Of a stretch of DNA of 52,133 bases, positions 1 through 52,133 are shown one piece after another. The translations under genes were made by a program, and so were the position numbers. A model generated the notes under the pieces. It had not been told where the DNA came from. It worked only from the letters and a program-made list of their open reading frames with translations, and searched no databases. Every line of letters starts with the position of its first letter. The stretch's first letter is position 1. Source of the stretch: a phage; sequence record OZ470597.1. One strand, given 5' to 3'.

Positions 1-1
1 T

Positions 2-523
2 ATGGCTAAAAACGTTGAGCCAGCAGTAAAGGCTTGCAATTTTAAAAAGCTATACAATAAGCAATATGGCGATATTGCAAAAATGACAAAGGCGCACAAG
101 TACACGCCGGAACAGGTGTTTGATCTGGCTGTACGTTACTTTACGTGGGCCGAGGAAAACCATATACAGGCTGCGGAAACTGCATCCTTTCAGGGTAATG
201 TATACGAAAGCAAGATTCACAAGCCGCGCGTGTTCACCTTAAATGGATTCCGCTTATTCGCTGGCCTTTCTGCTTCCGTGCTTGAAAAATGGCGACGCGA
301 GCCAGGATTCAGCGATGTTATGGACTTTATCGACGGAGTTGTTTACGAGCAAAAATTCCAGCTTGCTGCAAACAATATTGTTAACGCTGGATTCATTGGT
401 AAAGAGATCGGCATTGAAAAGCCAGCCACCGTTACCATTGAGAATAACACAAGCGCCAGCGTTGACGCTGTAACGGCGGAGGAAGTCAAAGAGGCGGTAA
501 TTGACATTCTGGAGAAGATATAA
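2..523 (+). CDS. terminase small subunit (putative)
   Basis: ATG at 2; 173 aa ORF whose stop overlaps the start of the large terminase (TAATG at 521-525); assigned by position only. Confidence 0.5.
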   Translation: MAKNVEPAVKACNFKKLYNKQYGDIAKMTKAHKYTPEQVFDLAVRYFTWAEENHIQAAETASFQGNVYESKIHKPRVFTLNGFRLFAGLSASVLEKWRREPGFSDVMDFIDGVVYEQKFQLAANNIVNAGFIGKEIGIEKPATVTIENNTSASVDAVTAEEVKEAVIDILEKI

Positions 524-2091
524 TGCTGATTTGGGAAGACTTAACAGCGGCGCAAAAACGCGCCATTAAGGAAATGAGCGAATATTCATTCGAAAAGATG
601 ATCCGCATTTGGTTCCAACTTCTCCAGGGACAAAGGTTCTTAGGAAACTGGCATTTCAGTTACCTATGCAGCGAAGTTGAAAAAATCATCAAAGGCGAGT
701 CACAAAACGTAATTTTCAACATAACGCCAGGCAGCGGTAAAACAGAGATATTCTCGATCCATATGTCACCTTATGCGTCATTGAAAAGTAAGAAGGTGCG
801 AAATCTTAATCTTTCGTTTAGTGATGGCCTTGTCCAGCAGAATAGCAACCGAATTAAGGAGATTATCGGTTCTCCAGAATGGCAGGAGCTATGGCCTGGA
901 AAACTGGCAAAGGCGAGCGCAAAGGATCTGATCGTAACCGATGGCGGCAAGGTTAAATTGCAAGTTAACTCGCGATCTATAGGTGGTCAGGTTACTGGTC
1001 TGCGTGGCGGCTACATGGACGATGGATTTACTGGTATGCTGGTTCTTGATGATCCAGACAAACCGGATGACATGCTTTCTAAGGTAAAGCGCGAAGCCGG
1101 ACACATGCGCCTAAAGAACACGGTGCGATCGCGTCGAATGAAGGACACAACGCCCATCGTAATGGTCCAGCAACGGCTACACGTCAATGATTCAACATGG
1201 TTCATGACAAACGGAGGTATGGGCGGCATCCAGTTTAAGGTTGTTAGCATTCCGGCGCTCGTTACTAAGGAATATCGCGAAACGCTTCCTGATTGGTTAA
1301 GGCATGAGTTTGATCGCGATGTTTTGTCCAGCAAGCCAGTAATGATTGATGGAGTTGCTCATTATTCATTCTGGCCTGCTAAGGAAAGCGCGGAGGAATT
1401 ACTTGCACTTCGCAATGCTGATCCGTACACGTTCGCTAGTCAGTACCAGCAACAGCCTGTTGCGCTTGGCGGTAACGTGTTTAAAACAGAGTGGTTTCAG
1501 TATTACGGCAGCAGCGAGAAATGCACGCTACCAAAACCGGATCGCTTTGAATATACATTTATCACGGTTGATACCGCGCAGAAAACAGGTGAGCTTAACG
1601 ACTACTCCGTGATCTGTTATTGGGGGATGTATAAAGATCGCGTTTACTTCATTGATGGTGTTCGCGGAAAATGGGAAGCACCAGACCTTGAGACTAATTT
1701 TGTTGCGTTCGTTAATCAGTGCTGGAAGCGCAATAAAGAATGCGGAACGTTGAGAAGGATTCATGTTGAAGATAAGTCATCTGGTACTGGCTTGATTCAG
1801 AGCGCAGCGAAAAAAATCATGATCAAGATCAATCCCGTTCAGCGAGATAAAGATAAGGTTACGCGAGCAATGGACGCAGCACCAGTAATGCGCGCCGGAC
1901 GCGTGGCACTTCCAGAATCTCATCCTATGCTGGCTGAGATACTCGCTGAAGTTGCGGCGTTTACATTCGATGATAGCCATCCTCATGATGATATTGTTGA
2001 TAACATCATTGATGCGGTTAACATTGAAATGAACATGGCAGATGATCCGGTTGGAAGAATGAAAAAATTGGCAGGTTTGCGGAACAAATAG
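523..2091 (+). CDS. terminase large subunit
   Basis: 522 aa; P-loop-like TPGSGKTE, Walker B-like MLVLDDPD, C-terminal nuclease-type acidic motifs (ITVDTAQ, HVEDKSSGTG); followed by terminator. Confidence 0.8.
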   Translation: MLIWEDLTAAQKRAIKEMSEYSFEKMIRIWFQLLQGQRFLGNWHFSYLCSEVEKIIKGESQNVIFNITPGSGKTEIFSIHMSPYASLKSKKVRNLNLSFSDGLVQQNSNRIKEIIGSPEWQELWPGKLAKASAKDLIVTDGGKVKLQVNSRSIGGQVTGLRGGYMDDGFTGMLVLDDPDKPDDMLSKVKREAGHMRLKNTVRSRRMKDTTPIVMVQQRLHVNDSTWFMTNGGMGGIQFKVVSIPALVTKEYRETLPDWLRHEFDRDVLSSKPVMIDGVAHYSFWPAKESAEELLALRNADPYTFASQYQQQPVALGGNVFKTEWFQYYGSSEKCTLPKPDRFEYTFITVDTAQKTGELNDYSVICYWGMYKDRVYFIDGVRGKWEAPDLETNFVAFVNQCWKRNKECGTLRRIHVEDKSSGTGLIQSAAKKIMIKINPVQRDKDKVTRAMDAAPVMRAGRVALPESHPMLAEILAEVAAFTFDDSHPHDDIVDNIIDAVNIEMNMADDPVGRMKKLAGLRNK

Positions 2092-2118
2092 ACGAATCGA
2101 CAAACCAATATATAATCA

Positions 2119-2146
2119 AAGGCTGGTAAATCCAGCCTTTTTTATT
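2119..2146 (+). terminator. intrinsic terminator after large terminase gene
   Basis: hairpin AGGCTGG...CCAGCCT followed by TTTTTT, then RBS GGAGG. Confidence 0.6.
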
Positions 2147-2158
2147 GGAGGAAAGATA

Positions 2159-3439
2159 ATGAGTAAATCACGAATCGTTAAGGCTGATGGCTATAACGAG
2201 ATCTTTAAAGGCGAGAATTGCAAATCGCGAGTAGAGCAACCATTCTACATGCAATCAATGCCATACAAGACACTTGCTGACTTTTACGAAAAAGACGGCT
2301 TGGCAAAAAGGATTATTGACGTAGTACCAGAGGAAATGGTTTCCCCTGGCTTTACTGTTGACGGCGTGGCAGACGAGGCAGCATTCCGTTCTTTGTGGGA
2401 TGAGAAGCGATTGAATGCAAAAATCATTGATGCGCTTTGCTGGTCGCGTTTGTTTGGCGGATCTGCAATCATTGCTCTTGTTCAGGATGGGCGAGCGCTC
2501 AAATCACCTGTAAAGCATGGAGCTATTCTGGAAGATGTGCGCGTTTACGATCGCTATCAGATTCGCGTTGAAGCGCGCGAAACTAATCCCCGCAAAGTTC
2601 GCTATGGTGAGCCAGTGCTTTACACTGTAACACCAGGCGGAGATTTGCCGGAATACCAGGTACACTACACGCGCGTTTGCATTATCGACGGTGAGCGGAT
2701 ACCTAACGCAAAGCGACGCAGCAATGATGGATGGGGTGAGTCAGTTCTTAACAAGCGACTTGTTGAGGCTATTGTTGATTATAACTATTGTGAAACATTA
2801 GCCACGCAATTATTGCGCAGGAAACAACAGGCGGTATGGAAGGCTAAAGGACTCGCTGACTTGTGCGATGATGAAGAAGGTGTTAGCGCGGCACGTCTGA
2901 GGCTTGCGCAGGTTGACGATGAGGGCGGCGTAGGCAAGGCCATTGGTATTGATGCTGAGGATGAGGAATATGATGTTCTTAACTCTGACATTAGCGGCGT
3001 TGATTCTTTTCTGGAAAAGAAAATGGATCGCATCGTTTCCCTTTCAGGTATTCATGAAATCATCCTGAAAAATAAAAACGTTGGCGGCGTTAGCGCAAGC
3101 CAAAACACGGCGCTTGAAACATTCTATAAACTTATTGAGCGAAAACGCGTTGAGGATTACAAGCCAATCCTTGAATTTCTATTGCCGTTCATCATTAGTG
3201 AGCAGGAGTGGAGCATTGAGTTTTCACCTTTGAGCGTACCTAGCGATAAAGATCAGGCTGAAATTCTGAATAAGAATATCGACTCAATCAGCAAGGCTAT
3301 TGATGGTCAGTTCCTTGATGTTGAAGAAGCGCGAGACACGTTGCGAGCAATCGCCCCAAGCGTTAAACTAAAGGACACTAATAAAATCAAGCTGCCGGAG
3401 CCAGTGGAGCCGGAGCCAGGCACACAGGGGAATGAGTAA
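2159..3439 (+). CDS. portal protein
   Basis: 426 aa ORF directly after terminase with GGAGG RBS; position and size typical of portal. Confidence 0.65.
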   Translation: MSKSRIVKADGYNEIFKGENCKSRVEQPFYMQSMPYKTLADFYEKDGLAKRIIDVVPEEMVSPGFTVDGVADEAAFRSLWDEKRLNAKIIDALCWSRLFGGSAIIALVQDGRALKSPVKHGAILEDVRVYDRYQIRVEARETNPRKVRYGEPVLYTVTPGGDLPEYQVHYTRVCIIDGERIPNAKRRSNDGWGESVLNKRLVEAIVDYNYCETLATQLLRRKQQAVWKAKGLADLCDDEEGVSAARLRLAQVDDEGGVGKAIGIDAEDEEYDVLNSDISGVDSFLEKKMDRIVSLSGIHEIILKNKNVGGVSASQNTALETFYKLIERKRVEDYKPILEFLLPFIISEQEWSIEFSPLSVPSDKDQAEILNKNIDSISKAIDGQFLDVEEARDTLRAIAPSVKLKDTNKIKLPEPVEPEPGTQGNE

Positions 3440-4203: not shown

Positions 4204-4206
4204 TTA

Positions 4207-5319: not shown

Positions 5320-5331
5320 GGAGAAATAAAC

Positions 5332-5844: not shown

Positions 5845-5851
5845 TAAATAT

Positions 5852-6336: not shown

Positions 6337-6364
6337 TTGCACGTTTAACAAAAAATGCTATCAT
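6337..6364 (+). promoter_or_regulatory. sigma70-like promoter upstream of major capsid gene (TTGCAC-16-TATCAT), overlapping a reversed copy of the conserved element
   Basis: -35 at 6337-6342, -10 at 6359-6364; conserved element gtttaacaaaaaatgctat at 6343-6361. Confidence 0.4.
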
Positions 6365-8175: not shown

Positions 8176-8543
8176 ACTATAACGAGATCGCAAGAATGGC
8201 AACCGAAGGAATTAACTTCTTTAGTGATGGCAACGGTGAGTTTAAGTGCATAACGCAGCGAGGAAGCGTTGAAATAATCGGAGGCGAAGAAGTAGAAAAG
8301 CCAGAGATTAGTGTAATGATTAAGGGTTTAATTCGATCCCCAAAAGTTCGAGAGGTTGACGGCGAGACAATACGAGTAACCGATAAGTTGGGAGTTTTTA
8401 ACAATAAAGTTGAAATTAAGAACGGGTATCATATTGATGTTGATGGTGAATTATATGTTGTAGTTGAAGCAAGACCAATCAGACAAACCAATGTCACTGT
8501 TGCTTATCGGCCTATTTTGAGAAGGATTTCTGTGCATGGCTAA
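8172..8543 (+). CDS. putative head closure/head-tail joining protein
   Basis: 123 aa, start overlaps upstream stop (ATGA); position. Confidence 0.4.
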
Positions 8544-8979
8544 AAACTACACGATAAGGGAATTTCACGGCAACATTGATGCGTGGATAAACGCCGTTGA
8601 TAATGGCCTGAAAGATTGCGTGGAGTTGTTCGCCGAAAAAGTGCATACAGATCTTGTTAAGCGTTCTCCGGTAGATACTGGTCGTTACCGTGGAAACTGG
8701 CAGGTAACAGCAAATAAGCCGCCATTGTATGCGCTTAACCAGTACGATAAGCACGGCGACAAAACGATCGCGGAAGGCAAGCGAGCCATATACGCAATAT
8801 TACGAGGCGGCGGCGCAGTAAGGGCCATTTATTTTTCTAACATGCTTATTTATGCTAACGCGCTTGAATACGGTCATTCAAAACAAGCGCCAGCGGGTGT
8901 GCTTGGTATTGTTGCCGTGAAGTTGCGTTCATATATGGCTGAAGCAATAAAAGAGTCGAGGGCTAAAAATGCACTATGA
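8536..8979 (+). CDS. neck/tail completion protein (HK97 gp10-like)
   Basis: 147 aa with VDTGRYRGNW motif typical of HK97 gp10-family head-tail proteins. Confidence 0.55.
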   Translation: MAKNYTIREFHGNIDAWINAVDNGLKDCVELFAEKVHTDLVKRSPVDTGRYRGNWQVTANKPPLYALNQYDKHGDKTIAEGKRAIYAILRGGGAVRAIYFSNMLIYANALEYGHSKQAPAGVLGIVAVKLRSYMAEAIKESRAKNAL

Positions 8980-24976: not shown

Positions 24977-25681
24977 TTAGCAACCACAGCAACCAGTCGG
25001 CGGAGTCGCCGGAGTTGGTAGCTTGAAGTTTACCAGTTGATTGACTTGGTTGATTTTGCAGTTGAGTTCCGAAGTCTGCTTCTCTTGAGAAAGAGCAAAG
25101 CGCGCTTCCTGCAACTGAGCTTTCATATCGCAAATCAAAACAGCCTGAGCATCAGCGAACTGTTGACGCATCAGATCTCGAGTTGCGTTACCTTGTCGCT
25201 CAATGTTCAGGTTAGTCTCGCAGCAACATCTTTCGGCTGCAATCTGTGCCTGATAGGAACGCTCAAGAGCATTAACATCAGCAGCATTAATCGCAGCAAC
25301 TGTCTGGTTAGTACCGCTAACAATCGCGGTATTCAGTCCGGCGAAACCTTGCACCGATGCAAGCAGGTTTTGCGTATTCTGGCTGGTAATGCCGTTAAAT
25401 GTTGATGCGGCGGAGCGCTCAACGGCAAGGTTTGTGGAGTTTTGGCCTTGCAGAGTTTGCAGTCCCAGGTTGTTTACGCCCGTCTGGATGTTATTAATAC
25501 CATCAAGAACAGCGTTAGCACCGACAGCAACAGCAGCACCATCACCACCATAACCACCACGACCATTAAAGCCGTTACCAAACCATGACCCAATCAGGCC
25601 GCCAACAGCACCACCAAGACCAGCCGCGCCAGCTTCGCCACCAAAACCACCACCAGTAGGGAGTAAAGTCATATCTGACAT
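24977..25681 (-). CDS. glycine-rich protein with Cys clusters (possible fiber-associated protein)
   Basis: start at ATG 25681 (MSDMTLLPTGGG) with RBS; Gly-rich N-terminus, coiled-coil middle, CCC and CCGC Cys clusters. Confidence 0.5.
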   Translation of the reverse strand: MSDMTLLPTGGGFGGEAGAAGLGGAVGGLIGSWFGNGFNGRGGYGGDGAAVAVGANAVLDGINNIQTGVNNLGLQTLQGQNSTNLAVERSAASTFNGITSQNTQNLLASVQGFAGLNTAIVSGTNQTVAAINAADVNALERSYQAQIAAERCCCETNLNIERQGNATRDLMRQQFADAQAVLICDMKAQLQEARFALSQEKQTSELNCKINQVNQLVNFKLPTPATPPTGCCGC

Positions 25682-25815: not shown

Positions 25816-25848
25816 CGAAAAAAGCGCAGCCGGAGCCGCGCTTGAGTT
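25816..25848 (-). terminator. putative terminator after lateral tail fiber gene
   Basis: imperfect GC-rich hairpin followed by T-run on minus strand. Confidence 0.4.
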
Positions 25849-25858
25849 AAAAAGATTG

Positions 25859-27976
25859 TTATTTATTGAGCAGTGCAGCAACAGCCGCCTTTAATTCGTC
25901 TATCTCCTTTTGCTGTTTTTCGATCATTCCTCCCATGTAAACCATAGCGCAAGCCATATCTGTTAGCATAACATTGCTATCTAGCGCCAATGTATCATCA
26001 TTTCTGTCAGTTTCAATCTGGCGATCAATGTATTCCTCGCCATTTTCATCAACCCCGATCACATCTTCAAATACTGGTGAGCCTGGGACAAGTTTCACGT
26101 ATTGCGGATCGATTTTTAACAGGTCTTGAGCTATCAGGCCAAAACGCTGGATGTCAGATCCATTGTATTTAAACATGGTTGGCAACCATTGCATCACGCG
26201 ATCATAGCTTTCCTTTCCGTCCGTGTACTGAATATCGTGCTTCAAATCACGATCAGATGTTGGGTTTTTTGCAAAGTCATAGTTTCCACCCCACGGATCA
26301 TTACCCCAAGAATAAATGTCACCAGACTTACTAAAATTATATGCGCGATGATAACGACCATCACCTAACATGTGAATAGCAACCTGAGGCCAATCAGTAG
26401 TGCCGCCTGAAATAATACCTAAAGACGTTCTCATATAGTAACCACCGTCAGACATAGACCCACCTGACACTATCGGAGACCAGCCGCTGTTATTTCTAGT
26501 AACGGTGTCAGCCCAAAACGGCGTTAACCTGTTATTTGCATCGGCGTCCCAGCCACCCATATAGCAACGACCCATAAAACCACGTGGCGACCTTACATAA
26601 CCGCTAGCCTGAACGTCATTCGGCTCAGGTATGAAGTTAAAATTTATGCCGGAGTATCCTGATTTATTTGGATTAATGTATAACTGTAAATTGTTTAGAT
26701 CCGTTCCTTCGCCCCTAACACCTCCTAACTGCCAGTATCCATCGTGCCAGTAGCCTTGCAGCAAGTTCACCCAGCCACCAGGAGATGAATCGCCAGTAAT
26801 ATTTAAAAGACTTATGTCTTTATTTCCACCGCTAGACGTCCCAACACCTACTCGATTTCCCTGCCCTGCGGTAACATTACCATTTGACTCAATGCCCCCA
26901 AATGCAACGACCTGACCAGTTCCAAGCCCAAAATTATTGCGAGCACCCTCAACAGTAGTTGCACCAGTACCGCCAGTGCTAATTTCAAACGGTTTGGTAT
27001 CATTTCCGTCGCCGGTCTGATATACAAGAAGCCCGTCATTTTTGATCACCAGCCTATATGATTTATTTGGCGAGTAAATAAACGAATGAACACCATCGGT
27101 ATCGTAAGGGGCAACTCGCATGTTCTCGCGAGCAATTTCAAGGTTAGACAGATCTGAAAGGTTCGCATTTTTTCTAAGCAGATTTTCAGCATTAAGGCTT
27201 TTAGCAAATTCTTCAGCCTCATTGCGCGCCATAACAGCGCCGTTTTTTGCAGTTTCAGCGGCGTTATTTGCAGATTGAGCGCCAGTCATGTATTGCTGGG
27301 CTGAATCCCTTGCTGAAATAGCTTCGTTTTTCAGATTAGAAACATCACCCTTTATCTGATTCATTTCTGAAACAGCCTGATCTTTAGTCTGGTTTACAGC
27401 TAAAACACCTTGATCGCGTGCGGAATTAACTTCCGTTATCGCAGAATCTTTAATCTGTTGCGTTTGCGCCTTGATTGCGTCAGTGTCTGCTTTAATCTGG
27501 TTTGTTTCAGCAACAGCAGAATCCTTTATCTGTTGAGTGTCGTTTTTCAGTTGTTCAGTAGCAGCACGATAATCTGCCGTTTTCTCTGCATCGCCTTTAA
27601 CCTGATTAGCCAGATCTTGCAATTGTTTCAGGTCAAAGTTTTTGAAAAATTCAATAGCTTCCTCGATCTGAGTTTCTTTGCTTTGATAGTAACGCAGCGT
27701 TTCAGCAACATCTTGCGCCAGGCCGTCAACAGTTATTGAGTCATGCAGCAAAATAATGTAGTTGCTTCTCCCAATTTCAGCGCCGCCAGTTGTGATTGCG
27801 CGGATTTGTGTATCGCTGATAACTTCACTAATCACAGCCGCTTGAAATGGTGCGTCAATAAAAAAGATTGTTGCGCCAGGACGAATGAGAGTTAGTTGCT
27901 CTCGCCATTTCGTGTCGTATCCAGTGATATAACCTTGAGCGTCCATTGACGCCTGTCCGGTTCTGTAAATTGCCAT
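25859..27976 (-). CDS. lateral tail fiber protein with C-terminal intramolecular chaperone (peptidase S74-like) domain
   Basis: start at ATG 27976 with GGGAG RBS (ORF extends to 28075 in frame); coiled-coil stalk, Gly-rich beta region, C-terminal DRDLKHDIQY...FGLIAQDL chaperone-type domain. Confidence 0.8.
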   Translation of the reverse strand: MAIYRTGQASMDAQGYITGYDTKWREQLTLIRPGATIFFIDAPFQAAVISEVISDTQIRAITTGGAEIGRSNYIILLHDSITVDGLAQDVAETLRYYQSKETQIEEAIEFFKNFDLKQLQDLANQVKGDAEKTADYRAATEQLKNDTQQIKDSAVAETNQIKADTDAIKAQTQQIKDSAITEVNSARDQGVLAVNQTKDQAVSEMNQIKGDVSNLKNEAISARDSAQQYMTGAQSANNAAETAKNGAVMARNEAEEFAKSLNAENLLRKNANLSDLSNLEIARENMRVAPYDTDGVHSFIYSPNKSYRLVIKNDGLLVYQTGDGNDTKPFEISTGGTGATTVEGARNNFGLGTGQVVAFGGIESNGNVTAGQGNRVGVGTSSGGNKDISLLNITGDSSPGGWVNLLQGYWHDGYWQLGGVRGEGTDLNNLQLYINPNKSGYSGINFNFIPEPNDVQASGYVRSPRGFMGRCYMGGWDADANNRLTPFWADTVTRNNSGWSPIVSGGSMSDGGYYMRTSLGIISGGTTDWPQVAIHMLGDGRYHRAYNFSKSGDIYSWGNDPWGGNYDFAKNPTSDRDLKHDIQYTDGKESYDRVMQWLPTMFKYNGSDIQRFGLIAQDLLKIDPQYVKLVPGSPVFEDVIGVDENGEEYIDRQIETDRNDDTLALDSNVMLTDMACAMVYMGGMIEKQQKEIDELKAAVAALLNK

Positions 27977-28075
27977 GCGTTTTCTCCCATGTTGCATGTT
28001 AATGTCAATGCAGATAATAGCATTTGATAAGGCAAAAAAAAACCCCGCAATGCAGGGTAAAAGTAGCAGTGACAT

Positions 28076-29062: not shown

Positions 29063-29536
29063 TTAGCAATTAGTGCTTTCAGGTTTATACAGGAATCCGC
29101 CAGGTTCATAATCTGACATTCTTACCACTCGCAACATTTCACGCTTATCACATCTCTTTGTGAGCGGTTTGCCATTGGAATCAAATCGCAGATCTGGACG
29201 GCAGAATGAAGCTCGATAGCCTTGACAGCCATACTTTTTGTAATCGTTATGCACCTTTTGAGCGCCAGCGGCTGAAATCATACCGCGAACACGCCACTGA
29301 TTTACGGTTTGCTGGCTAACGTTAAGACGTTTTGCCATTGCTGACACGCTTCCGTAATACTCAATAAGGATGTCAAGTCGCGCTTTTAGTCCGGCGCGCA
29401 CTTCATCTTTTAAAACATAGTATCCTGTAGGGCGCTTGCGCTTTTTCTTATCTTTACCCCGTCGAGTTCCGTTATTGCCATTAATTGTGCGCTTGTCAAT
29501 CTTGCCTGTTGATACTGCGATTCGCTGTTCTTTCAT
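29063..29536 (-). CDS. HTH-domain DNA-binding protein (putative transcriptional regulator)
   Basis: 157 aa; basic N-terminus and helix-turn-helix SVSAMAKRLNVSQQTVNQW; divergent from helicase gene. Confidence 0.55.
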   Translation of the reverse strand: MKEQRIAVSTGKIDKRTINGNNGTRRGKDKKKRKRPTGYYVLKDEVRAGLKARLDILIEYYGSVSAMAKRLNVSQQTVNQWRVRGMISAAGAQKVHNDYKKYGCQGYRASFCRPDLRFDSNGKPLTKRCDKREMLRVVRMSDYEPGGFLYKPESTNC

Positions 29537-38447: not shown

Positions 38448-38945
38448 CTATTTCCCGTGGTTTTCATGGAATCCATAATCAATCAACAATCTATCTCTTT
38501 CTGATATAGCCGACTCCAAGCATGTGTGCCACCCGCCATAAATCAATCTACCATCAACCCTCACATTAACCTTGTATTTACCCCTATTTTCGTACCAGAT
38601 AATACCTATATGACCGCTTGTATTGTTAGACCGCATGGATAAATTTCGTCCGTTTATCGACCTTGTAACCAGCCTCAAGTTTTCTATCCTGTTATCAGTT
38701 CTGTCATGGTTTAAGTGATCAACCTCCATGTTTGGCGGAATATCTCCGTTATGCATAATCCAAACAACCCTGTGAGCATAAATCTGCACACCTTCTATAG
38801 TTAGCTTTACATACCCTTTGCTGTTTACGGTTCCAGCCTCAAGACTACGTTTTCTACCCTTTCTCCATTCCTTCCAGTAAAGAATCCCGTCGTCGTATCT
38901 TAGTTGACTTAGAAGTATTTCGCTTGAAATTTTGCAGTTGCACAT
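38448..38945 (-). CDS. HNH homing endonuclease
   Basis: 165 aa; MEVDHLNHDRTDNRIENLRL HNH motif, C-terminal DYGFHENHGK; GGAGG RBS; 5' end overlaps upstream gene by 37 nt. Confidence 0.8.
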   Translation of the reverse strand: MCNCKISSEILLSQLRYDDGILYWKEWRKGRKRSLEAGTVNSKGYVKLTIEGVQIYAHRVVWIMHNGDIPPNMEVDHLNHDRTDNRIENLRLVTRSINGRNLSMRSNNTSGHIGIIWYENRGKYKVNVRVDGRLIYGGWHTCLESAISERDRLLIDYGFHENHGK

Positions 38946-39323: not shown

Positions 39324-39367
39324 ATTATGCCAGGCTTTTACACCTGGCTTTTAACAAAAAGTGCTAT
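39324..39367 (-). promoter_or_regulatory. conserved-element promoter for 38909..39292 gene
   Basis: minus-strand ATAGCACTTTTTGTTAAAAG (39348-39367), spacer hairpin GCCAGGTGTAAAAGCCTGGC, -10 CATAAT (39324-39329). Confidence 0.55.
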
Positions 39368-40050
39368 TTTGCGTTAGCTTCAAAGACGGCGCGAGCAAAA
39401 CCGCGCGGTGTGAGGGAGCGGAGTTGCTTTGTTCTGGCAGACTTACCGCCTAAAAACTTCCAACCCCAAAAGAACATTACGCCCTCATCATTGCATAACG
39501 GCTTGCGTTCCGGTTCGGTAAATCCGTTGCCGCACCAGATAGCCGTCCTTTTTGTGTAGCCATCCTTTAGCGGCATCTTGGGGTGAAAAGATCCATCGGA
39601 TTCGTCCAGGTAGTTACCAAAATCGCGCGGATTGAAATAAAAATCAGGCTTGCGCCATAGCGTTGATAGTCGGCCTACAGGATTCTCAGCCATCCAGGGA
39701 ACACCGAAATGATTCCCGACAGTTTCAACCATGATTGCATTTTTGAGCGCGACCTGAACATCATCATCGCTTCGCGCGTGCTTGATTCCTGATTGGGCAA
39801 ACATGGTGCAGTCTGGAAATCCAAATACAATATCTGGTTTTGGAATATCCATCTTACTGATTCTTTCAATGAAATTTTCATCAATCCACATATTCACATA
39901 ATGCAGATTTTCATGCTTCATCTTGATGAAATATTCGCCGTGATTTCCTTCATCAGCGTTAAAGCAATAGCATTGATAGCCAGCCTTAGCATATTCAAGC
40001 AGCATGATTCCAGATCCATCAAACATTGAGTAAGCAACTTTATTTCCCAT
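39364..40050 (-). CDS. C5-cytosine methyltransferase-like protein (divergent, compact)
   Basis: FDGSG (motif I-like), GFPDC (motif IV PC-like), ENP (ENV-like) at spacing typical of C5-MTases; start uncertain (ORF extends to 40110, overlapping the HNH gene). Confidence 0.4.
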   Translation of the reverse strand: MGNKVAYSMFDGSGIMLLEYAKAGYQCYCFNADEGNHGEYFIKMKHENLHYVNMWIDENFIERISKMDIPKPDIVFGFPDCTMFAQSGIKHARSDDDVQVALKNAIMVETVGNHFGVPWMAENPVGRLSTLWRKPDFYFNPRDFGNYLDESDGSFHPKMPLKDGYTKRTAIWCGNGFTEPERKPLCNDEGVMFFWGWKFLGGKSARTKQLRSLTPRGFARAVFEANAK

Positions 40051-40567
40051 GATTTTTATGATACCCCAATTCATTCTCGGCTTTACGTTTTGCGGCAACA
40101 GCATCTCCAAAACTGGAGAAACAACCTATATAAATCCTACATCCTCGCTTTCCGCTTCCAACCCTTACAACCCATTTTCCATGTTTATTTTTATGCACAC
40201 CTGGTATGCCACTTGTATTGTTTTTCTGCTTTGATGTGTTTCGCATATTTCCTTTGTGATCTTTTAATTCAAAGTTTATTGCTCTGTTATCAGTAGTAAT
40301 GTGATTTACGTGATCAACCTCCATTCCTTCCGGTATAGGCCCATAGTGCATTTCATAGCATATTCTATGAACTTTCAGATTATAACGCTTTCCATTTACA
40401 GTAAGTGCGGTTTCTAAATATCGACCACCACTACCCAAAGAGCCAACCTCATTACCAGCATTGCAAGCATTCCATTGTTTAACTCTTGATTGGTGAATAT
40501 CTTTTCTTTCTTTCCAGAACAGCTTTCCAGTTTCTGGATTGTATGTAAAGTAATCGTGCCAATTCAT
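40040..40567 (-). CDS. HNH homing endonuclease (paralog)
   Basis: 175 aa; MEVDHVNHITTDNRAINFEL HNH motif, C-terminal ELGYHKNHGK; GAGGTGA RBS. Confidence 0.8.
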   Translation of the reverse strand: MNWHDYFTYNPETGKLFWKERKDIHQSRVKQWNACNAGNEVGSLGSGGRYLETALTVNGKRYNLKVHRICYEMHYGPIPEGMEVDHVNHITTDNRAINFELKDHKGNMRNTSKQKNNTSGIPGVHKNKHGKWVVRVGSGKRGCRIYIGCFSSFGDAVAAKRKAENELGYHKNHGK

Positions 40568-43292: not shown

Positions 43293-43611
43293 TTGCTGAC
43301 TGGTCATTATTCCATCTATTCCATTAATCAGGAATAACAGGAATAACTCATTCTCGATCACCTGGATTGTGAGACTTTGAGTTTGATCAATTTTAATCAG
43401 TTGATTAACTTTTTGTGTGGAGGGGATAGAGAAACGCGATCCTCTCGCATCCTTTCCGGCAATCCTGGTGAGCGCAACTGTTGTCTTCTGTTATCGCTGT
43501 TGTGCGTGTTATTCCGGCGTGGAATCGCATAACAAAAAATAACAAGAAAAATCCATATAACATACTAAAAAATAAGGATTATTTATTTATATGTATCTAT
43601 AAATTATTATC

Positions 43612-43690
43612 TGTTATGTGTGTTATGTGGTTATATTGATACCTGGTGTATTTTTGGTGGTTGTGTGTGGTTGTGTGTTGGTTGGTGTGT
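43612..43690. repeat. GT-rich tandem repeats in divergent early control region
   Basis: TGTTATGTG x2 (43612-43629) and GGTTGTGTG x2 (43659-43677); shares GGTTATGTG-type motif with 20860-21030. Confidence 0.5.
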
Positions 43691-43890
43691 ATATATGGGG
43701 TGTGGGGCGTATCCGCGCATTTTTAGATAACACGCAAAAACAACATTGATTTATAAGAAAAAAAAACGCGAATCTTGTTATGTTATGAAAAGATAACATC
43801 GGAAAACCGCCGGTAACAATAAAAAACAGTTGACACACCAGGTGGCGGTAAATGATGATGCAGTCACTGAGTCACGAGGAGGTATAAAGC

Positions 43891-44361
43891 ATGAGTGAAT
43901 CTGTATTTACAAATGAGCTTCGCAAGGTTGCGATTGCGCTCGCATCTGGATTGCACGAATCGATCCAGATACCTGAAAGATGGGTAAGGCAGCACCTGGA
44001 GGGTAAGAAGTCAGCCAGCAATGCTGGATCATATATCCGTCAGATTATGGGGCGCGTTCCAGAAGTGGCGGAGAAGGGGAGAGTTTCAGTCTCAAAGAAA
44101 CCTTACGGCCCTGATAGCGAATATTTCGGAGAAAATTACTTTGATGTGGCGATTGTTAGTGCGCCGAATCGCAGGGTGTACAACAAGGCCGCGCTTGAGA
44201 AGGCTGTAGCGAAAGCAAAACGCCAGGTTGCTGAGTCGATGCTTAAAGTCTCACCAAACCTAGCGAACTACTCGCCAGATGAATATGAAACACTTGCTAA
44301 GGCGATCGCAGACTTTCACGCGATCATTAAAGAAACATATCTTAACGATGAGGAACAATAA
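43891..44361 (+). CDS. hypothetical protein (first gene of rightward early arm)
   Basis: 156 aa, GAGGAGG RBS. Confidence 0.5.
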   Translation: MSESVFTNELRKVAIALASGLHESIQIPERWVRQHLEGKKSASNAGSYIRQIMGRVPEVAEKGRVSVSKKPYGPDSEYFGENYFDVAIVSAPNRRVYNKAALEKAVAKAKRQVAESMLKVSPNLANYSPDEYETLAKAIADFHAIIKETYLNDEEQ

Positions 44362-44362
44362 A

Positions 44363-44611
44363 ATGAGCAAACTTACTCTTGATGAACTGATGGAAAAAAT
44401 TGATGAAGTTGGCTTTAACAAACTGGTTGATTTCCACTTGACCGCATGTGAAATCACCGCGCAGGAGTTTAGCGACATGCTATCTGATGCGAGCGAGATT
44501 TACACAAGCCTATGCGGAAGAGAAATCAAAGTCATTGAAATTGAAATGCCTGGAGATCCGGTATTTGCAAGGCTTGTGGCTGCATTCGATGAGGAGAATG
44601 TTGGACTCTGA
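44363..44611 (+). CDS. hypothetical protein
   Basis: ATG 44363 with GAGGAA RBS; 82 aa acidic. Confidence 0.45.
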   Translation: MSKLTLDELMEKIDEVGFNKLVDFHLTACEITAQEFSDMLSDASEIYTSLCGREIKVIEIEMPGDPVFARLVAAFDEENVGL

Positions 44612-44617
44612 GCGGAA

Positions 44618-45180: not shown

Positions 45181-46068
45181 ATGTTAAAACTTGCTGACAT
45201 TAAATTCCCGATCACCTTCGAATCTCGCGGCGTTGGTCATTTCATGTTTACCGACGAGAAGACATGCACTAAGTTTAACGAATACGGAAGTCCAAACGCT
45301 TCAACAATGGAGATTGAATACTTCATTGAAGCGCACAATAAACACTACAACTCACTCAGAGACTACGGTTACGCAATGCCAGGCTACACATGTTTGCACT
45401 ATGAGCCATATAAGGGCCAGGTGTTACCAGTGCGCTCACCGGAACGCGCAGAGATTCATACGGTCGATATGAAAACCTGCGACTACAAAAAATTGTGGTG
45501 CTTAAGCGTGGATAACATCAAGTATCCGATTGTTTTTCATTGTGGCGGTTCAACAATCAGGTTCACATCACGCGACAATGGCGTTTATAGCGATGGTACG
45601 AAATCAGAGTTGAAAGTTGATTTATTTGTTAATGGTCACAACAAATTCAATCCACACAATGAAGAGGATAAGGTGTACTACGTGGAAGATGTTACAAAAC
45701 ACTTGTTTGGAGAAACACCATTCGGCGGCGGAAAGACGTCAATTCAGAAAATCATTGGCGAGGAGATCCACAAAGCTGCTACCGAAATGAAAGCGCCTGG
45801 ACGCTGGCGTATTGATAAGAGCGCCTTTGCAAATCAAGAAATCGTAACGCAGGGCGCTATTGAAGACATGCCAGTTGCCGCCACGCTAAAAGGAGTTCAG
45901 CTTGATGATGGTATGTGGTTTGAAGTAACGGCAAAACCAAAGACGATCGAGATTCATGATGATGTTGTTATTCTTCTACTTCATTACGGTAGCGCAAAAA
46001 ACCGTACCGTTGCGGGTGAGATTAGCATCAAGCGCGGAACGATGGTTAAGTGGAAGGTGAAAGTGTAA
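45181..46068 (+). CDS. hypothetical protein with internal duplication
   Basis: 295 aa; repeated segments IKFPITFESRGVGHFMFTDEKT and IKYPIVFHCGGSTIRFTSRDNG; CAGGAG RBS. Confidence 0.55.
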   Translation: MLKLADIKFPITFESRGVGHFMFTDEKTCTKFNEYGSPNASTMEIEYFIEAHNKHYNSLRDYGYAMPGYTCLHYEPYKGQVLPVRSPERAEIHTVDMKTCDYKKLWCLSVDNIKYPIVFHCGGSTIRFTSRDNGVYSDGTKSELKVDLFVNGHNKFNPHNEEDKVYYVEDVTKHLFGETPFGGGKTSIQKIIGEEIHKAATEMKAPGRWRIDKSAFANQEIVTQGAIEDMPVAATLKGVQLDDGMWFEVTAKPKTIEIHDDVVILLLHYGSAKNRTVAGEISIKRGTMVKWKVKV

Positions 46069-46111
46069 ATAGCACGAATTGTTAAAACTCAAATGTGGGG
46101 CCAAGTATAAT
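46069..46111 (+). promoter_or_regulatory. conserved-element promoter (variant)
   Basis: ATAGCACGAATTGTTAAAAC 46069-46088; -10 TATAAT 46106-46111. Confidence 0.5.
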
Positions 46112-46580: not shown

Positions 46581-46591
46581 TAGGTTTGATA

Positions 46592-47329: not shown

Positions 47330-47360
47330 AAGCCAATCGACAACAAGCGAGGATTAAATC

Positions 47361-47624: not shown

Positions 47625-47806
47625 TTTGGTTACTTGTATTTTTGGTTGTTTTCTTTTATATTTCAGGCTTATTCATCTTCCGTGCGCTGGTGAAAACATG
47701 CGATTGCACGGATAAAGATCAGCCTCTTGTTCTGATGTTCTGGTTTGTGTGGTTTTGGGTTGCGCTTTATCAGATTGTACGGGATAAAAGCGGATTCAAG
47801 TGGTGA
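47621..47806 (+). CDS. hypothetical membrane protein (two predicted TMDs)
   Basis: 61 aa, GAAGGAG RBS, two hydrophobic helices (IWLLVFLVVFFYISGLFIF; LVLMFWFVWFWVALYQI). Confidence 0.45.
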   Translation: MIWLLVFLVVFFYISGLFIFRALVKTCDCTDKDQPLVLMFWFVWFWVALYQIVRDKSGFKW

Positions 47807-48000
47807 TTCTTACTATAGCGCATTCACGCAGTGCGCTATGTTGAGATAACAACATGAGATCATGAAGATGCGAAACTTCGAAAAAATCGTATCCAAAAAG
47901 AAGCGATACAGCTACCACGAGCACCAAGAGATGAATCAACGCTATCGCAATAAGCGCCAGCGCAAAGGTAAACATTCCGGTAAACATGGAGAAAATCAAT

Positions 48001-48591: not shown

Positions 48592-48631
48592 CACGAATTG
48601 CTAAAAGCGGGGCGCAATGCCTCGCTATAAT
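48588..48631 (+). promoter_or_regulatory. conserved-element promoter (variant)
   Basis: ATAGCACGAATTGCTAAAAG 48588-48607; -10 TATAAT 48626-48631. Confidence 0.5.
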
Positions 48632-48661
48632 GCAAAAACCAATCAACGAAAGGACTTGGAT

Positions 48662-49066
48662 ATGTTAGATCTTCACAAAATCCGCGTAGGCACAAAATTT
48701 GTTGTAACCTGGGTATATGATGAGCGATGCGGCATTCGTAAAGGTGAGATTGTAACGGCTTCCGATCGCTATATCGGATCGTTAAAAGAGTTTAACCGAC
48801 CGCGCATTAAGAATGGCTATATCATTACTCGACGACTTGGCTTTGATCATTATTGCGTAGTGGCAACTCAAGGCTTTTTGATTGAGCTTAAGCGAATCAG
48901 AGATCATCGCGGCTGCCATGTTAAGACAATGAAGATACCATTTCAGCAAGCGCGATACGATGCGCGACGTATGCGCCGACTTGCGCGAAATGCGATCAAG
49001 TTCAAAAAGCCTGATAATGTTTTTTACGGCATGTACAAGGGGATTGCGCGAAATGCTGGGAAATAA
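48662..49066 (+). CDS. hypothetical protein
   Basis: ATG 48662 with AAGGA RBS downstream of promoter 48588-48631. Confidence 0.45.
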   Translation: MLDLHKIRVGTKFVVTWVYDERCGIRKGEIVTASDRYIGSLKEFNRPRIKNGYIITRRLGFDHYCVVATQGFLIELKRIRDHRGCHVKTMKIPFQQARYDARRMRRLARNAIKFKKPDNVFYGMYKGIARNAGK

Positions 49067-49165
49067 CAACAACGCAACAAATCCAAAGCCGCCATTTAAT
49101 TTTCATGAAATCATGATTGTGTTATTCTTGATTCTCTTAGTTGTTTATTCAGTGAGGGCCGCAAT

Positions 49166-49429
49166 ATGGTTTTTAATGCACTAAAACGAATCTTTAAACC
49201 TGAATACCGGATCGTTGCTTGCACAGAATGCAAGATTTATTACCTGCAACGCCGCCGCGTTATTAGTGGCGATTGGGAATACCTAACGGATGATGCTTTC
49301 GGCTTTTGGGTTATGGAGTTCAATAGCTACAGTGAAGCGCGTGAGTACGCTAAAAAGTTGCACAAGTTCCGACCTTACAAACTGCGTTTACTGGTTGTTA
49401 AAAAATGCGATGTGTGGGATCACGAATGA
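49166..49429 (+). CDS. hypothetical protein
   Basis: 87 aa; GAGGG RBS. Confidence 0.45.
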   Translation: MVFNALKRIFKPEYRIVACTECKIYYLQRRRVISGDWEYLTDDAFGFWVMEFNSYSEAREYAKKLHKFRPYKLRLLVVKKCDVWDHE

Positions 49430-49554
49430 AAAGAGTAATTATCATTTTTATTGCCGTTATCGCTGGTTGCTACCTGGCTTATAATTATCCGTTATTGCTG
49501 GTTGCTACCTGGCTTATAATTATAGCGGCATTGTTGAGTCAATCGGCGGGTTGA
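49426..49554 (+). CDS. hypothetical small membrane peptide containing a 35-bp tandem repeat
   Basis: 42 aa hydrophobic ORF overlapping upstream stop (ATGA); coding status uncertain. Confidence 0.25.
   Translation: MKRVIIIFIAVIAGCYLAYNYPLLLVATWLIIIAALLSQSAG
49454..49523 (+). repeat. tandem direct repeat, 2 x 35 bp
   Basis: CCGTTAT(C/T)GCTGGTTGCTACCTGGCTTATAATTAT at 49454-49488 and 49489-49523, one mismatch. Confidence 0.85.
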
Positions 49555-49683
49555 TTATCTTCATGGCTGGCGGGTATGCTGGCTATTGTGATGGATTCGA
49601 AAACGGTAAGCGTTACATGCTGACCGAAAAAAAAGAAGTAATGTTAACCGCGCCGCTTCGGTGGCGCTAAAAGGAGGAAGCAA

Positions 49684-49971
49684 ATGGCTAAAAGCTATCG
49701 TAAAATGTTGATTAACGCATTCGAAAAGGCAGCGCTTGAGCGTGGTTGGAATGACTCATTTCACACAGCAAACTGTATCCGCCGTTACGGATTCAAGAAT
49801 TGCCGCTCATGGGCGCGTCAAATGGCTTCATGGTATGATCTTGATGCGCATTACCTTGATATGGATTGCGCGCTGGTTGAAATGATTGAGCAGGCAGCGC
49901 TAGAGGATCGACCATTGACGCAATCTGATTTTGACGATTTTGTTCGCGATGAAATCTATTACATGAGCTAA
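49684..49971 (+). CDS. hypothetical protein
   Basis: 95 aa; AAAGGAGG RBS. Confidence 0.5.
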   Translation: MAKSYRKMLINAFEKAALERGWNDSFHTANCIRRYGFKNCRSWARQMASWYDLDAHYLDMDCALVEMIEQAALEDRPLTQSDFDDFVRDEIYYMS

Positions 49972-50013
49972 TAGCACTTTTTGTTAAAACTTCCGCGAGG
50001 GCATTTGTTAAAG
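49971..50013 (+). promoter_or_regulatory. conserved-element promoter
   Basis: ATAGCACTTTTTGTTAAAAC 49971-49990; extended -10-like TGTTAAAGT 50005-50013. Confidence 0.45.
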
Positions 50014-50046
50014 TGTCCTCATTGAAGCGAAACAGAGGAAAGAGCA

Positions 50047-50304
50047 ATGTCAACCTTAAAAGATAAAAATTTTATCGGTCATGTTAGAGTTAAGTTAATC
50101 AATGTTGACTACAGACCAGATCCAGAATCGCCAACATTGCGCGAGTGGGCCGGATTCGAAAACGTAAAGGAAATGGTTGTAGAGCTTTACAAAGATGGTG
50201 AGATGTGGGCGATGGCTGGCATTAATCACAACGGCGAATTTGGCGAAGTAAAAGAAACAGATTGGTTTAGTCTTACAGATAATGAAGCGGAGATTATCGA
50301 ATGA
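50047..50304 (+). CDS. hypothetical protein
   Basis: 85 aa; AGAGGAA RBS; first of three translationally coupled genes. Confidence 0.45.
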   Translation: MSTLKDKNFIGHVRVKLINVDYRPDPESPTLREWAGFENVKEMVVELYKDGEMWAMAGINHNGEFGEVKETDWFSLTDNEAEIIE

Positions 50305-50564
50305 TCACGATTAACCTGTCAGAGCAGCAAGCGCGCATTATGTTAGCGGCCTTCGGTTGGCGAGATGATAACGGTATTCAGTCAACGGTTAAAATTCCTG
50401 AGCCAGTGGCGCGTGAAGTTTTCAGCCAGCTAGAACACGCATTTGATCCGGCTGGGGCTGAGCAAGCGGAAACTGCCGCATGGTTCGGTGAGAACGGATA
50501 CCGCGATCATCAGATTGAAGAATGGAAGCGCAAAAACGAAACGGCGGAGGATGCTGGATTATGA
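50301..50564 (+). CDS. hypothetical protein
   Basis: 87 aa; start overlaps upstream stop (ATGA). Confidence 0.45.
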   Translation: MITINLSEQQARIMLAAFGWRDDNGIQSTVKIPEPVAREVFSQLEHAFDPAGAEQAETAAWFGENGYRDHQIEEWKRKNETAEDAGL

Positions 50565-50875
50565 TTTACATTCACTACTACCAGATCGGGACAAACGAAA
50601 ACAAGCAGGAGCGCAGAGCAATTTGTGACACGCTCGACGATGCGAAAGCACAGCAACGCGTTTTGGGTGGTGTAATTCAGGCTTTTGAGCCAGTGGAAGA
50701 TATAGAGCACCGAGAGCATTTGAAAGAGATTGTTGTTGATGAAATTTCATCACTAATCGACGACATGACAAATCACGGACCTGGTTCTCCGTGGGAAGAA
50801 GATGGATCGACGGAGTGGGATTGCGCTAAAGTTGCAACACTTAACAACTTTCGTGAGTTGCTCGACGATTTTTAA
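50561..50875 (+). CDS. hypothetical protein
   Basis: 104 aa; start overlaps upstream stop (ATGA). Confidence 0.45.
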   Translation: MIYIHYYQIGTNENKQERRAICDTLDDAKAQQRVLGGVIQAFEPVEDIEHREHLKEIVVDEISSLIDDMTNHGPGSPWEEDGSTEWDCAKVATLNNFRELLDDF

Positions 50876-50945
50876 TTAAAATTGAATGCCTCATACAGCG
50901 AACAGGACGCATTTTGACGAGGAATTTTTTAGGTAAGGTGATTCA

Positions 50946-51074
50946 ATGGATAACTACATAAAACCGTCGCAGTGGTGCGCACAGAAGCAAGAGGAAGCAT
51001 TAGAACGCGGCGACACTGAAACGGCAATGCACTATTTCGAAATGTACAACTTGTGGAAGGGCAGAGGTCTGTAA
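50946..51074 (+). CDS. hypothetical small protein
   Basis: 42 aa ORF with AGGTAAGGTG RBS. Confidence 0.3.
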   Translation: MDNYIKPSQWCAQKQEEALERGDTETAMHYFEMYNLWKGRGL

Positions 51075-51304
51075 TGTTTGGAATGAACGAGGCACAATTC
51101 AACGCTGCAAAACGCCAGGCTAAGAAGTGCGGCGAGGCAATGAAGGCGGATGTTGAAAAGCGCGGGAAGTATGTTGATGAAGTTATGAAGGGCATTATTG
51201 CCGAACATTATCAGCCAGTTGCGCCAATGCTGACAATCACTCAATTCATCTGGTTGTGTGGTTATCTTCGTGGGAGATGGGGAAACGCATTTGACCGCGA
51301 ATGA
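51074..51304 (+). CDS. hypothetical protein
   Basis: 76 aa; start overlaps upstream stop (TAATG). Confidence 0.4.
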   Translation: MFGMNEAQFNAAKRQAKKCGEAMKADVEKRGKYVDEVMKGIIAEHYQPVAPMLTITQFIWLCGYLRGRWGNAFDRE

Positions 51305-51448
51305 TTGACAACGATTTCCTGATTGGATAGCATATCAATCGTTTACATAAGAGCGGCTAAGGCCGAACGGGTGGCGCGGTTGCCACGCAACAACGGCGAT
51401 ATGCAGGTTTTTACCGTAAGACGTATCGCCTTCTTTATAGGTGAATAT

Positions 51449-51682
51449 ATGGAAAAATACAAATTAACTTTCATGTTTGACAGTATGGTGATGAATCCAT
51501 TAAATGGTTACGCTTGCAATAGCTTTTCTGTTACCGTTAATGAGGATGAAATTGATGATGATGGTAAATTTATTCGAATAGGTGATTACATTTATCCTAT
51601 TCACAATATCAATTGCATCAAGCGCGAGATTGTTAAGGATGAAGTACAAAGTAAAGCTGACAATCAGACGAATGGGGCGTAA
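51449..51682 (+). CDS. hypothetical protein
   Basis: ATG 51449 with AGGTGA RBS. Confidence 0.4.
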   Translation: MEKYKLTFMFDSMVMNPLNGYACNSFSVTVNEDEIDDDGKFIRIGDYIYPIHNINCIKREIVKDEVQSKADNQTNGA

Positions 51683-51827
51683 TTGCCAGTCATGTAGGCA
51701 GGATTTTGAATGCGAGATTTCAGCGCAAAATCCTGTTGACGCGATTCAATGCGCTAAAGTTATATCAGGTGCAGATCCAGAGACGCATCAATTTTCAATC
51801 AACTTTGTAAGGGAAGTATCATGTTAA
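51639..51827 (+). CDS. hypothetical Cys-rich small protein
   Basis: overlapping ORF with CQSCRQDFEC motif; start uncertain. Confidence 0.25.
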   Translation: MKYKVKLTIRRMGRNCQSCRQDFECEISAQNPVDAIQCAKVISGADPETHQFSINFVREVSC

Positions 51828-52054
51828 ACTTAATTTCTGCTTTTGTTATTGGTTTTGTTTTTGCTGTAATTATTCTGCTTATCGCGTCGGAAAAGATTTG
51901 CAAATTTCTTGCTAAGAACGGGAAGTTTGCAAGCGCGACATGGAATAACAAGAAGCAGCGATGGGATGTGCGCGGTCACTACCTGACGATTGGTAGCAAA
52001 ATCCATCAACATCTGAAGAATCAAGAAGATGAAAAAGTAAAATACAAGTGTTGA
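51821..52054 (+). CDS. hypothetical membrane protein
   Basis: 77 aa; N-terminal TMD LISAFVIGFVFAVIILLIA; terminator after. Confidence 0.45.
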   Translation: MLNLISAFVIGFVFAVIILLIASEKICKFLAKNGKFASATWNNKKQRWDVRGHYLTIGSKIHQHLKNQEDEKVKYKC

Positions 52055-52060
52055 ACAACT

Positions 52061-52085
52061 ACCCGCCAAATGGCGGGTTTTTTAT
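52061..52085 (+). terminator. intrinsic terminator at end of rightward early arm
   Basis: CCCGCC...GGCGGG hairpin followed by TTTTTT; TATAAT at 52101-52106 downstream. Confidence 0.65.
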
Positions 52086-52133
52086 TGTCTGCAATTTGTC
52101 TATAATGAGGCTTTGTTATAAAGGAGGGCGCAT

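Follow-up and report, generated by a model that had tools for sequence, protein, structure and literature searches.

Genes and sequence elements at the joined ends of the genome

The phage sequence record OZ470597.1 was analysed over its whole length of 52,133 nucleotides (the window), with emphasis on the point where its last base would be joined to its first, directly upstream of the small terminase gene terS. An initial annotation had described the window as a complete, circularly permuted T1-like phage genome whose ends join into a terminase promoter and ribosome-binding site (RBS), and had proposed a virulent lifestyle. Our comparisons point to the genome of a virulent T1-like siphovirus (Hanrivervirus), complete and of unit length, recorded as a circular assembly opened before terS, in which transcription would re-initiate at the rejoined ends and the DNA would be packaged by headfuls from a pac site; we place the probability of this reading at roughly 0.88. 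The locus comprises the following features:

1..52133 (+): genome unit, complete Hanrivervirus (Drexlerviridae, Tempevirinae) genome, cut open a single nucleotide ahead of the terS ATG
51821..52054 (+): 77-aa gene that closes the rightward early arm, from the list of open reading frames (ORFs), directly upstream of the junction
52061..52085 (+): rho-independent terminator, stem ACCCGCC/GGCGGGT (52061-52078) with loop AAAT, then TTTTTT
52101..52106 (+): putative -10 box TATAAT of a terS/late-operon promoter, proposed from conservation across genera; no -35
52121..52127 (+): Shine-Dalgarno sequence AAGGAGG, brought to 7 nt from the terS ATG by joining of the ends
2..523 (+): terS, P22 gp3-type small terminase (PF16677 GP3_package, phrog_606)
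523..2091 (+): terL, large terminase (PF17289 Terminase_6C; phrog_38, E = 2.5e-106)

The two motifs named in the initial annotation lie exactly where it had placed them, and after joining of the ends the RBS stands 7 nt before the ATG at position 2, separated from it by the spacer GCGCATT. The genome ends in AAGGAGGGCGCAT (last letters GCGCAT) and starts with T-ATG-GCT. The terminator, which the initial annotation had missed, has a stem of seven pairs, six of them G-C, and the -10 box begins 22 nt after its T run. In damhaus, aalborv and grams, a counterpart of the early gene at 51821..52054 is annotated in the corresponding position, and the counterpart in metagenome contigs carries PF23973 DUF7299.

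The ORF at position 2 proved to be a small terminase gene, as had been supposed, because its product scores above the Pfam cut-off for PF16677 GP3_package (37.3 bits vs 29.4) and belongs to phrog_606 (E = 4.6e-53). The protein also matches the structure of P22 gp3 (PDB 3P9A; E = 8.7e-15), and is 53% identical to the small terminase (TerS) of T1 and 49% to that of TLS. The large terminase (TerL) is 65% identical to its T1 counterpart over 520 aa.

Identity and completeness

The two halves of OZ470597.1 were compared by megablast with 50,697 phage records (August 2025 collection), and both matched the Hanrivervirus members SFP17, vojen, egaa, G29-2, damhaus, pSf-1 and JakobBernoulli at 94-97% identity. 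The first 25 kb is covered completely (100%) by SFP17, vojen, egaa and G29-2, the first three of these at 96-97% identity, and the last 25 kb is covered to 83-87% by pSf-1, damhaus and JakobBernoulli. Genome-wide nucleotide similarity exceeds 70% to members of Hanrivervirus, including the type species pSf-1. With JakobBernoulli (51,129 bp) and pSf-1 (51,821 bp) the genome is circularly collinear, about 90% of each being covered. pSf-1 covers 47,115 of the 52,133 bp at 84.7-96.5% identity and JakobBernoulli 46,944 bp at 85-96%; most blocks are 91-96.5% identical, while short replaced blocks fall to about 85%. The unaligned part of about 10% consists of cassette replacements and not of absent ends.

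T1 is likewise collinear with the genome over its whole length, at 63-72% identity, and the size of 52,133 bp falls inside the Hanrivervirus range of 46-53 kb. On the basis of these three observations the window is a complete genome, as had been proposed, and the whole-genome comparison with T1 and its relatives that the initial annotation had suggested as a check also bears out its T1-like character within Drexlerviridae. The sequence contains no N and has a G+C content of 44.0%; no tRNA genes and no matches to Rfam families were found in the genome.

Overall similarity to the two fully compared relatives, JakobBernoulli and pSf-1, is about 85% and lies under the 95% species line. It combines a divergence of 4-6% with about 10% of replaced content. 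At species level the phage is therefore probably new, but it does no more than add a member to Hanrivervirus, a well-sampled genus of virulent coliphages. No identical record exists in the August 2025 phage collection.

The gene content was read from the curated annotation of JakobBernoulli, pSf-1 and T1 together with the ORF map. Packaging and head functions are represented by terS, terL, the portal, a head protease, and the decoration and major capsid proteins, and these are followed by a tail module with tail genes, the tape measure and a J-like tip. Recombination and replication genes comprise a RecE-like exonuclease, Erf, SSB, a primase, two helicases, Dam and a second methyltransferase. 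In addition, there are a lateral tail fibre, holin, endolysin and spanin genes, a polynucleotide kinase and two divergent arms of small early genes. The gene order (terS-terL-portal-head-tail-J, recE/erf/ssb, a leftward segment from tail fibre to primase, helicase-dam-lysis, and the divergent early arms) matches that of JakobBernoulli, pSf-1 and T1. All of these features match what is known for T1-like phages, and the genome is in this sense an ordinary one.

That the two ends join, as the initial annotation had it, is borne out by a 3-kb probe made of the last 1.5 kb and the first 1.5 kb, which gives a single uninterrupted alignment at 94-97% identity to internal positions of six relatives (damhaus, aalborv, vojen, aaroes, vB_Eco-B1.3 and G29-2). 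A shorter probe of 344 nt across the junction is covered to at least 80% in 110 records, including Warwickvirus genomes at about 73% identity. In pSf-1 the last base of the window corresponds to position 25052 and the first base to 25053. Moreover, two contigs from metagenomes or read archives (51.8 and 48.3 kb) encode an identical TerS and hold the junction in their interior; in all, the TerS protein is on record in five contigs, which at about 96% identity represent other relatives. The first 3 kb and the last 6 kb share no 15-mer, which rules out a terminal direct repeat or an assembler k-mer overlap. Since the junction is in one piece in the relatives and the contigs and the ends have no 15-mer in common, no base has been lost or duplicated there.

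The terminator and the -10 element in front of terS

The junction was aligned for four Hanrivervirus and four Warwickvirus sequences, to which TLS and T1 were added later. Across the Hanrivervirus and Warwickvirus junctions the spacers vary, but the elements that they separate do not change: the terminator stem, the T run, TATAAT, AAGGAG and ATGGC. The terminator stem and the T run are also invariant in TLS and T1, and these two phages have TA(T/A)AAT at the same constant distance after the terminator (TATAAT in TLS and TAAAAT in T1), so that the arrangement extends over four genera. Warwickvirus and T1 possess a full extended -10 element, TGnTA(T/A)AAT.

The case that these motifs are real rests on this conservation and not on their counts. 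TATAAT occurs 15 times on the + strand vs about 25 expected from the base composition, and AAGGAGG occurs nine times vs about four expected. The combination of TATAAT, 8-40 nt, AAGGAG, 4-10 nt and a start codon has just two occurrences, at 46106 and 52101, when the genome is circularised. A degenerate tandem repeat of 17 nt reported by TRF at 52095-52127 (score 43) is not conserved in Warwickvirus and was taken as chance.

The RBS of terS is secure. We regard the -10 box as a probable promoter, which would be weak by consensus and possibly activator-dependent. Several observations weigh against a promoter at this site. The present genome and the other Hanriverviruses have TGTC-TATAAT, with the TG at -16/-15 and hence 1 nt off the register of an extended -10 element. 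A consensus promoter scan called no site at the junction, because there is no usable -35 hexamer; the best -35 candidate, TTTTTA with a 16-nt spacer, has three of six matches, and a canonical -35/-10 promoter was accordingly set aside. Of the elements by which a sigma-70 promoter is recognised, the -10 hexamer is present and both the -35 and a TG at -15/-14 are missing. The terminase promoter of the initial annotation is thus retained as a conserved -10 box and not as a site with a -35, while its RBS stands as described.

These points can also be read as signs that TATAAT is not a working promoter, and that terS and the late genes are instead reached by transcripts that start at promoters further upstream, such as ones linked to the 21-nt repeats described below, and partly read through the terminator. 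The box would then have been kept for the terminator context, as a protein-binding site, or by slow divergence. Besides the missing -35, the misplaced TG and the silent scan, this explanation is favoured by the under-representation of TATAAT in the genome, which is not enriched in it, and by the experience of the TLS authors, who were convinced by no more than three intergenic sigma-70 promoters across the TLS genome and left the transcriptons of that phage unconfirmed. However, TA(T/A)AAT has kept a fixed distance from the terminator in four genera despite the changing bases of the spacers, and the full extended -10 element of Warwickvirus and T1 needs no -35. We therefore consider expression by read-through doubtful, though it is the strongest of the alternatives.

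The rejoined ends restore an ordinary intergenic region made up of the stop of the last rightward early gene, a terminator, a conserved -10-type element and an RBS. If the -10 box does act as a promoter, transcripts of the early arm would halt at the terminator, and the host sigma-70 RNA polymerase would re-initiate at the -10 box, which would be of the extended -10 type and either weak or in need of an activator. Re-initiation would then drive terS, terL and the downstream morphogenesis genes. Such a layout would resemble the 'transcriptons' of T1: according to the TLS paper, the late region of that phage consists of units flanked by terminators and containing RpoD promoters, and the authors were unable to confirm such units rigorously in TLS. 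Our literature search found no transcript data for Hanrivervirus.

A more specific and rather unlikely proposal is that the couple of terminator and -10 box, seen in all four Drexlerviridae genera examined, is the early-to-late switch of the family and not a plain constitutive promoter. On that proposal, a promoter lacking a -35 and placed behind a terminator would fire only with a phage factor, and the candidates may include the conserved Cro-like regulator (see below) or a protein that reads the 21-nt repeats. If it were true, and with a TerS of the P22 gp3 type acting more than 8 kb from its own gene, T1-like phages would be tractable systems for two questions raised by the TLS authors.

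Packaging mode and the position of pac

Packaging was considered together with a further feature of the genome:

43296..43890 (no strand): large non-coding region of about 600 nt between the divergent early arms, proposed pac/first-headful end by synteny with T1 and TLS

T1 and TLS are pac/headful phages with limited permutation. The T1 record has a repeat_region at 1-2800 and terS at 8396. In TLS, headful packaging and pac were mapped by restriction; position 1 of its record is pac (AGATTT...) and terS lies at 8792, while the sole basis for assigning its pac sequence was a likeness of 6 nt to the P22 pac. Within Hanrivervirus, vB_EcoS-149_4M (52.0 kb) has been classified as 'Headful (pac)' by PhageTermVirome, and the literature on 2019SD1 and on the Danish wastewater phages contained no terminus analysis for the genus. 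The present genome combines a TerS of a pac-recognising family with a TerL orthologous to that of a phage shown experimentally to package by headfuls.

By analogy with T1 and TLS, the virion DNA is most likely produced by pac-initiated headful packaging from concatemers. The P22 gp3-like TerS would recognise pac in the non-coding stretch between the divergent early arms, where the first cut would be made, and successive headfuls of more than 100% of the genome length would yield terminally redundant and partially permuted molecules. Indirect support for such molecules comes from the closing of the assembly to a circle that has no fixed repeat, and from the 'Headful (pac)' call for a Hanrivervirus. 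The start of the T1 record falls within 43296-43890 by synteny, with T1 position 1 aligning weakly to about 43357, and the sign of the GC skew switches within the same region. In T1 and TLS the defined pac end at which the first cut is made precedes terS by 8.4-8.8 kb, so that a semi-defined physical end of the present DNA probably lies near 43.4 kb. We give odds slightly better than even to a first packaging cut at about 43.36-43.43 kb, some 8.7 kb upstream of terS. The coordinate is approximate because the non-coding region aligns weakly with T1 and TLS; the likeness to the ends of these two phages at about 43.36-43.43 kb is weak and consists of short GATT/TGAT-rich stretches and a GAGGGGAT motif.

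Two independently assembled records, those of G29-2 and haarsle, start at the equivalents of 43428 and 43420, only 8 nt apart. The authors of G29-2 linearised its genome where most reads ended abruptly, or failing that after related phages. The nearby starts possibly reflect reads that stop at a real packaging terminus.

Some caution is called for with this placement of pac. The coincidence of the G29-2 and haarsle starts was noticed post hoc, and G29-2 may have been arranged after T1. The matches of the region 43.0-44.1 kb to the ends of the T1 and TLS records are short and weak, with E-values of 0.001 or worse. Likewise, the packaging mode, the redundancy and the pac position proposed for this isolate are drawn from homology.

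In P22, pac lies inside gene 3. As the TerS of the present phage belongs to the P22 gp3 family, pac might also be sought in or beside terS, in the style of P22, Sf6 and SPP1, and the opening point of the record would then nearly coincide with the real end of the first headful. That the TLS pac sequence was assigned by so short a P22-pac resemblance lends this possibility some weight. The T1 redundancy region of 2.8 kb at positions 1-2800, with terS at 8396, and the restriction mapping that puts the TLS pac at position 1, with terS at 8792, both speak against it, as do the starts of G29-2 and haarsle near 43.42 kb; a start at terS is seen only in records that were deliberately re-oriented (see below). 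We therefore judge a pac site at terS to be quite improbable. A P22-pac resemblance at the overlap of terS and terL (GAAGAT...ATG) was set aside because the T1 and TLS data place pac elsewhere. With pac most plausibly located in the non-coding region, terminus, transduction or genome-engineering designs should seek it near 43.4 kb.

The same non-coding region contains, at 43575-43724, a block that is rich in G and T and poor in C (GC skew +0.66, AT skew -0.49) and includes 3.3 copies of GTGGTTGTGT. The alignments of many relatives stop at about 43492, and this part of the region is therefore variable within the genus. It could be linked to pac, to an origin or to early promoters.

The opening point of the record

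JakobBernoulli, KarlJaspers and EC147 have records that share this opening point at the terS ATG, and the records of other relatives start at scattered positions. In OZ470597.1 the cut falls between an RBS and its start codon, and we therefore take it as a deliberate re-orientation of the record: a circular assembly was cut open by annotation convention, so both ends are artificial. Circular permutation of the genome and the arbitrariness of its opening are suggested by analogy only. That the ends are instead true physical ends (cos ends or collapsed fixed direct terminal repeats), or that junction sequence was lost in assembly, is hardly credible, since the junction is base-for-base collinear with the interior of many independently assembled relatives and of the two metagenome contigs, the cut 1 nt before a start codon marks a re-orientation shared with JakobBernoulli, KarlJaspers and EC147, and there is no terminal repeat. 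For users of the record this means that nothing is to be sought beyond its ends, that the terminator, the -10 box, the RBS and terS should be read across the junction, and that the ends of the record are not the ends of the virion DNA.

Lifestyle and the helix-turn-helix regulator

The initial annotation had found neither an integrase nor a repressor. The annotation of relatives covering about 90% of the genome lists no integrase-like ORF. Neither this annotation nor a comparison of 20 ORFs with Pfam and PHROG, among them the larger ones of the segments specific to this genome, showed an integrase, recombinase or partition system. All ORFs of at least 150 aa are accounted for by the annotation of relatives or by direct scans. 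One gene is relevant to the second half of the claim:

29063..29536 (-): Cro/YdaS-like helix-turn-helix (HTH) regulator (phrog_2856 'transcriptional regulator', E = 3.3e-78)

Its protein scores just under the Pfam cut-offs for YdaS_toxin and P22_Cro, over the HTH only, and matches a repressor PHROG with E = 5.4e-6, again over the HTH only. Orthologues of this regulator are annotated in the virulent T1 (ST23), in pSf-1 and in JakobBernoulli. As a Cro/YdaS-like regulator is encoded, the statement that there is no repressor was slightly too strong, whereas the absence of an integrase was upheld by the relatives and the scans.

The regulator, together with the RecE-like exonuclease and Erf recombination genes, might be taken to suggest a temperate or prophage-derived phage. 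However, the virulent T1 has the same regulator and the same recombination genes, no integrase-like ORF was found, with all ORFs of 150 aa and above accounted for, and the relatives were isolated as lytic phages and scored as virulent (for one Hanrivervirus, PhaTYP gave a score of 1.00), so that a temperate nature is highly improbable. The virulent lifestyle proposed in the initial annotation is well supported by the lack of an integrase-like ORF, by a regulator shared with virulent T1 and by the lytic relatives.

Repeats and variable segments

A repeat of 21 nt, AATAGCACTTTTTGTTAAAA, is present in 16 copies with at most three mismatches vs 0.01 expected. Eleven copies, mostly on the - strand, are at 6343, 10103, 20770, 29549, 32067, 33087, 38204, 39349, 41892, 42398 and 43274, and the others are on the + strand at 44617, 45081, 46068, 47285 and 49970. 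Most of them lie between genes and point the way in which the two early arms are transcribed, outward from about 43.3-43.9 kb; behind several copies, GGCATAAT follows at a distance of about 25 nt. The repeat is the aaATAGCACnnnTTGnTAAAA repeat known from TLS, T1 and Rtp, the function of which was listed as a question by the TLS authors.

Another repeat, a tandem duplication of 35 bp at 49454-49523 (2.0 copies, 97% identical), has in each copy a short hairpin, GCTGGTTGCTACCTGGC, and then TTATAATTAT. As JakobBernoulli lacks about 38 bp in the corresponding collinear block, the duplication may be peculiar to the present phage.

Several segments differ between this genome and its closest fully compared relatives. 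For instance, two paralogous HNH endonuclease genes (HNH_3, phrog_99) flank a DNA methyltransferase gene (phrog_757), the three genes lying at 38448-38945 (-), 39364-40110 (-) and 40040-40567 (-). The segment 38440-40566 is mostly unaligned with JakobBernoulli and pSf-1, in which the methyltransferase region is shorter; about 0.5 kb at 38.95-39.45 kb aligns at 85-87%. The HNH genes look like homing-endonuclease insertions around the methyltransferase. In the lateral tail fibre gene (25859-28075 (-), 738 aa), positions 25842-27148 are unaligned with JakobBernoulli and positions 26290-27435 with pSf-1. No record of the exact protein was found in the public protein and contig collection, and the difference is the usual exchange of a host-range cassette.

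The first gene of the rightward early arm (43891-44361 (+)) encodes a DUF7174 protein (phrog_4841) and lies in a segment, 43502-44615, that is unaligned with JakobBernoulli. Another early protein, encoded at 45181-46068 (+), has 295 aa (phrog_7116) and is without an assigned function. Along most of its length, the present T1-like coliphage is also 90-94% identical to about 20 unannotated GenBank records (MG065636-MG065687) that bear the name 'Campylobacter phage ...' and list Campylobacter jejuni as host; these are apparently coliphage genomes that were mislabelled or came from contamination.

Comparison with known systems

Among the named systems, the closest are the members of Hanrivervirus (pSf-1, SFP17, vojen, egaa, damhaus, G29-2 and JakobBernoulli/Bas07), which share with the present genome the gene order, the size range, the G+C content (44%), and the same terminator, -10 box and RBS upstream of terS. 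JakobBernoulli and pSf-1 differ from it in the distal part of the lateral tail fibre, in the two HNH genes around the cytosine-type methyltransferase and in several small early genes.

TLS (Tlsvirus) belongs to the same subfamily, Tempevirinae, and has the same layout, the same family of 21-nt repeats and the same succession of terminator, TATAAT and RBS before terS. Its pac was experimentally mapped in a non-coding region 8.8 kb upstream of terS. However, it represents another genus, uses TolC as its receptor and has a TerS that is 49% identical to the one described here.

T1 (Tunavirus, Tunavirinae, Drexlerviridae) shows synteny over the whole genome, but the DNA identity is only 63-72% in the conserved genes. 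It resembles the present phage in having a terminator followed by TGnTAAAAT before terS (its record annotates a terminator at 8322-8344) and in its divergent early arms with 21-nt repeats, and it packages from pac by headfuls with a redundancy region of 2.8 kb. In T1, a 21-nt repeat lies between the -10 box and the terS RBS, where the present genome has none, and the non-coding pac region of the two phages is barely alignable.

The gp3 of P22 is a sequence homologue of the present TerS, and P22 packages sequentially by headfuls from pac. The two systems differ in the position of pac, which in P22 lies within gene 3 and in T1 and TLS (and, by extension, probably here) more than 8 kb upstream of terS, and in the lineage of TerL, which here is of the Terminase_6C/phrog_38 type.

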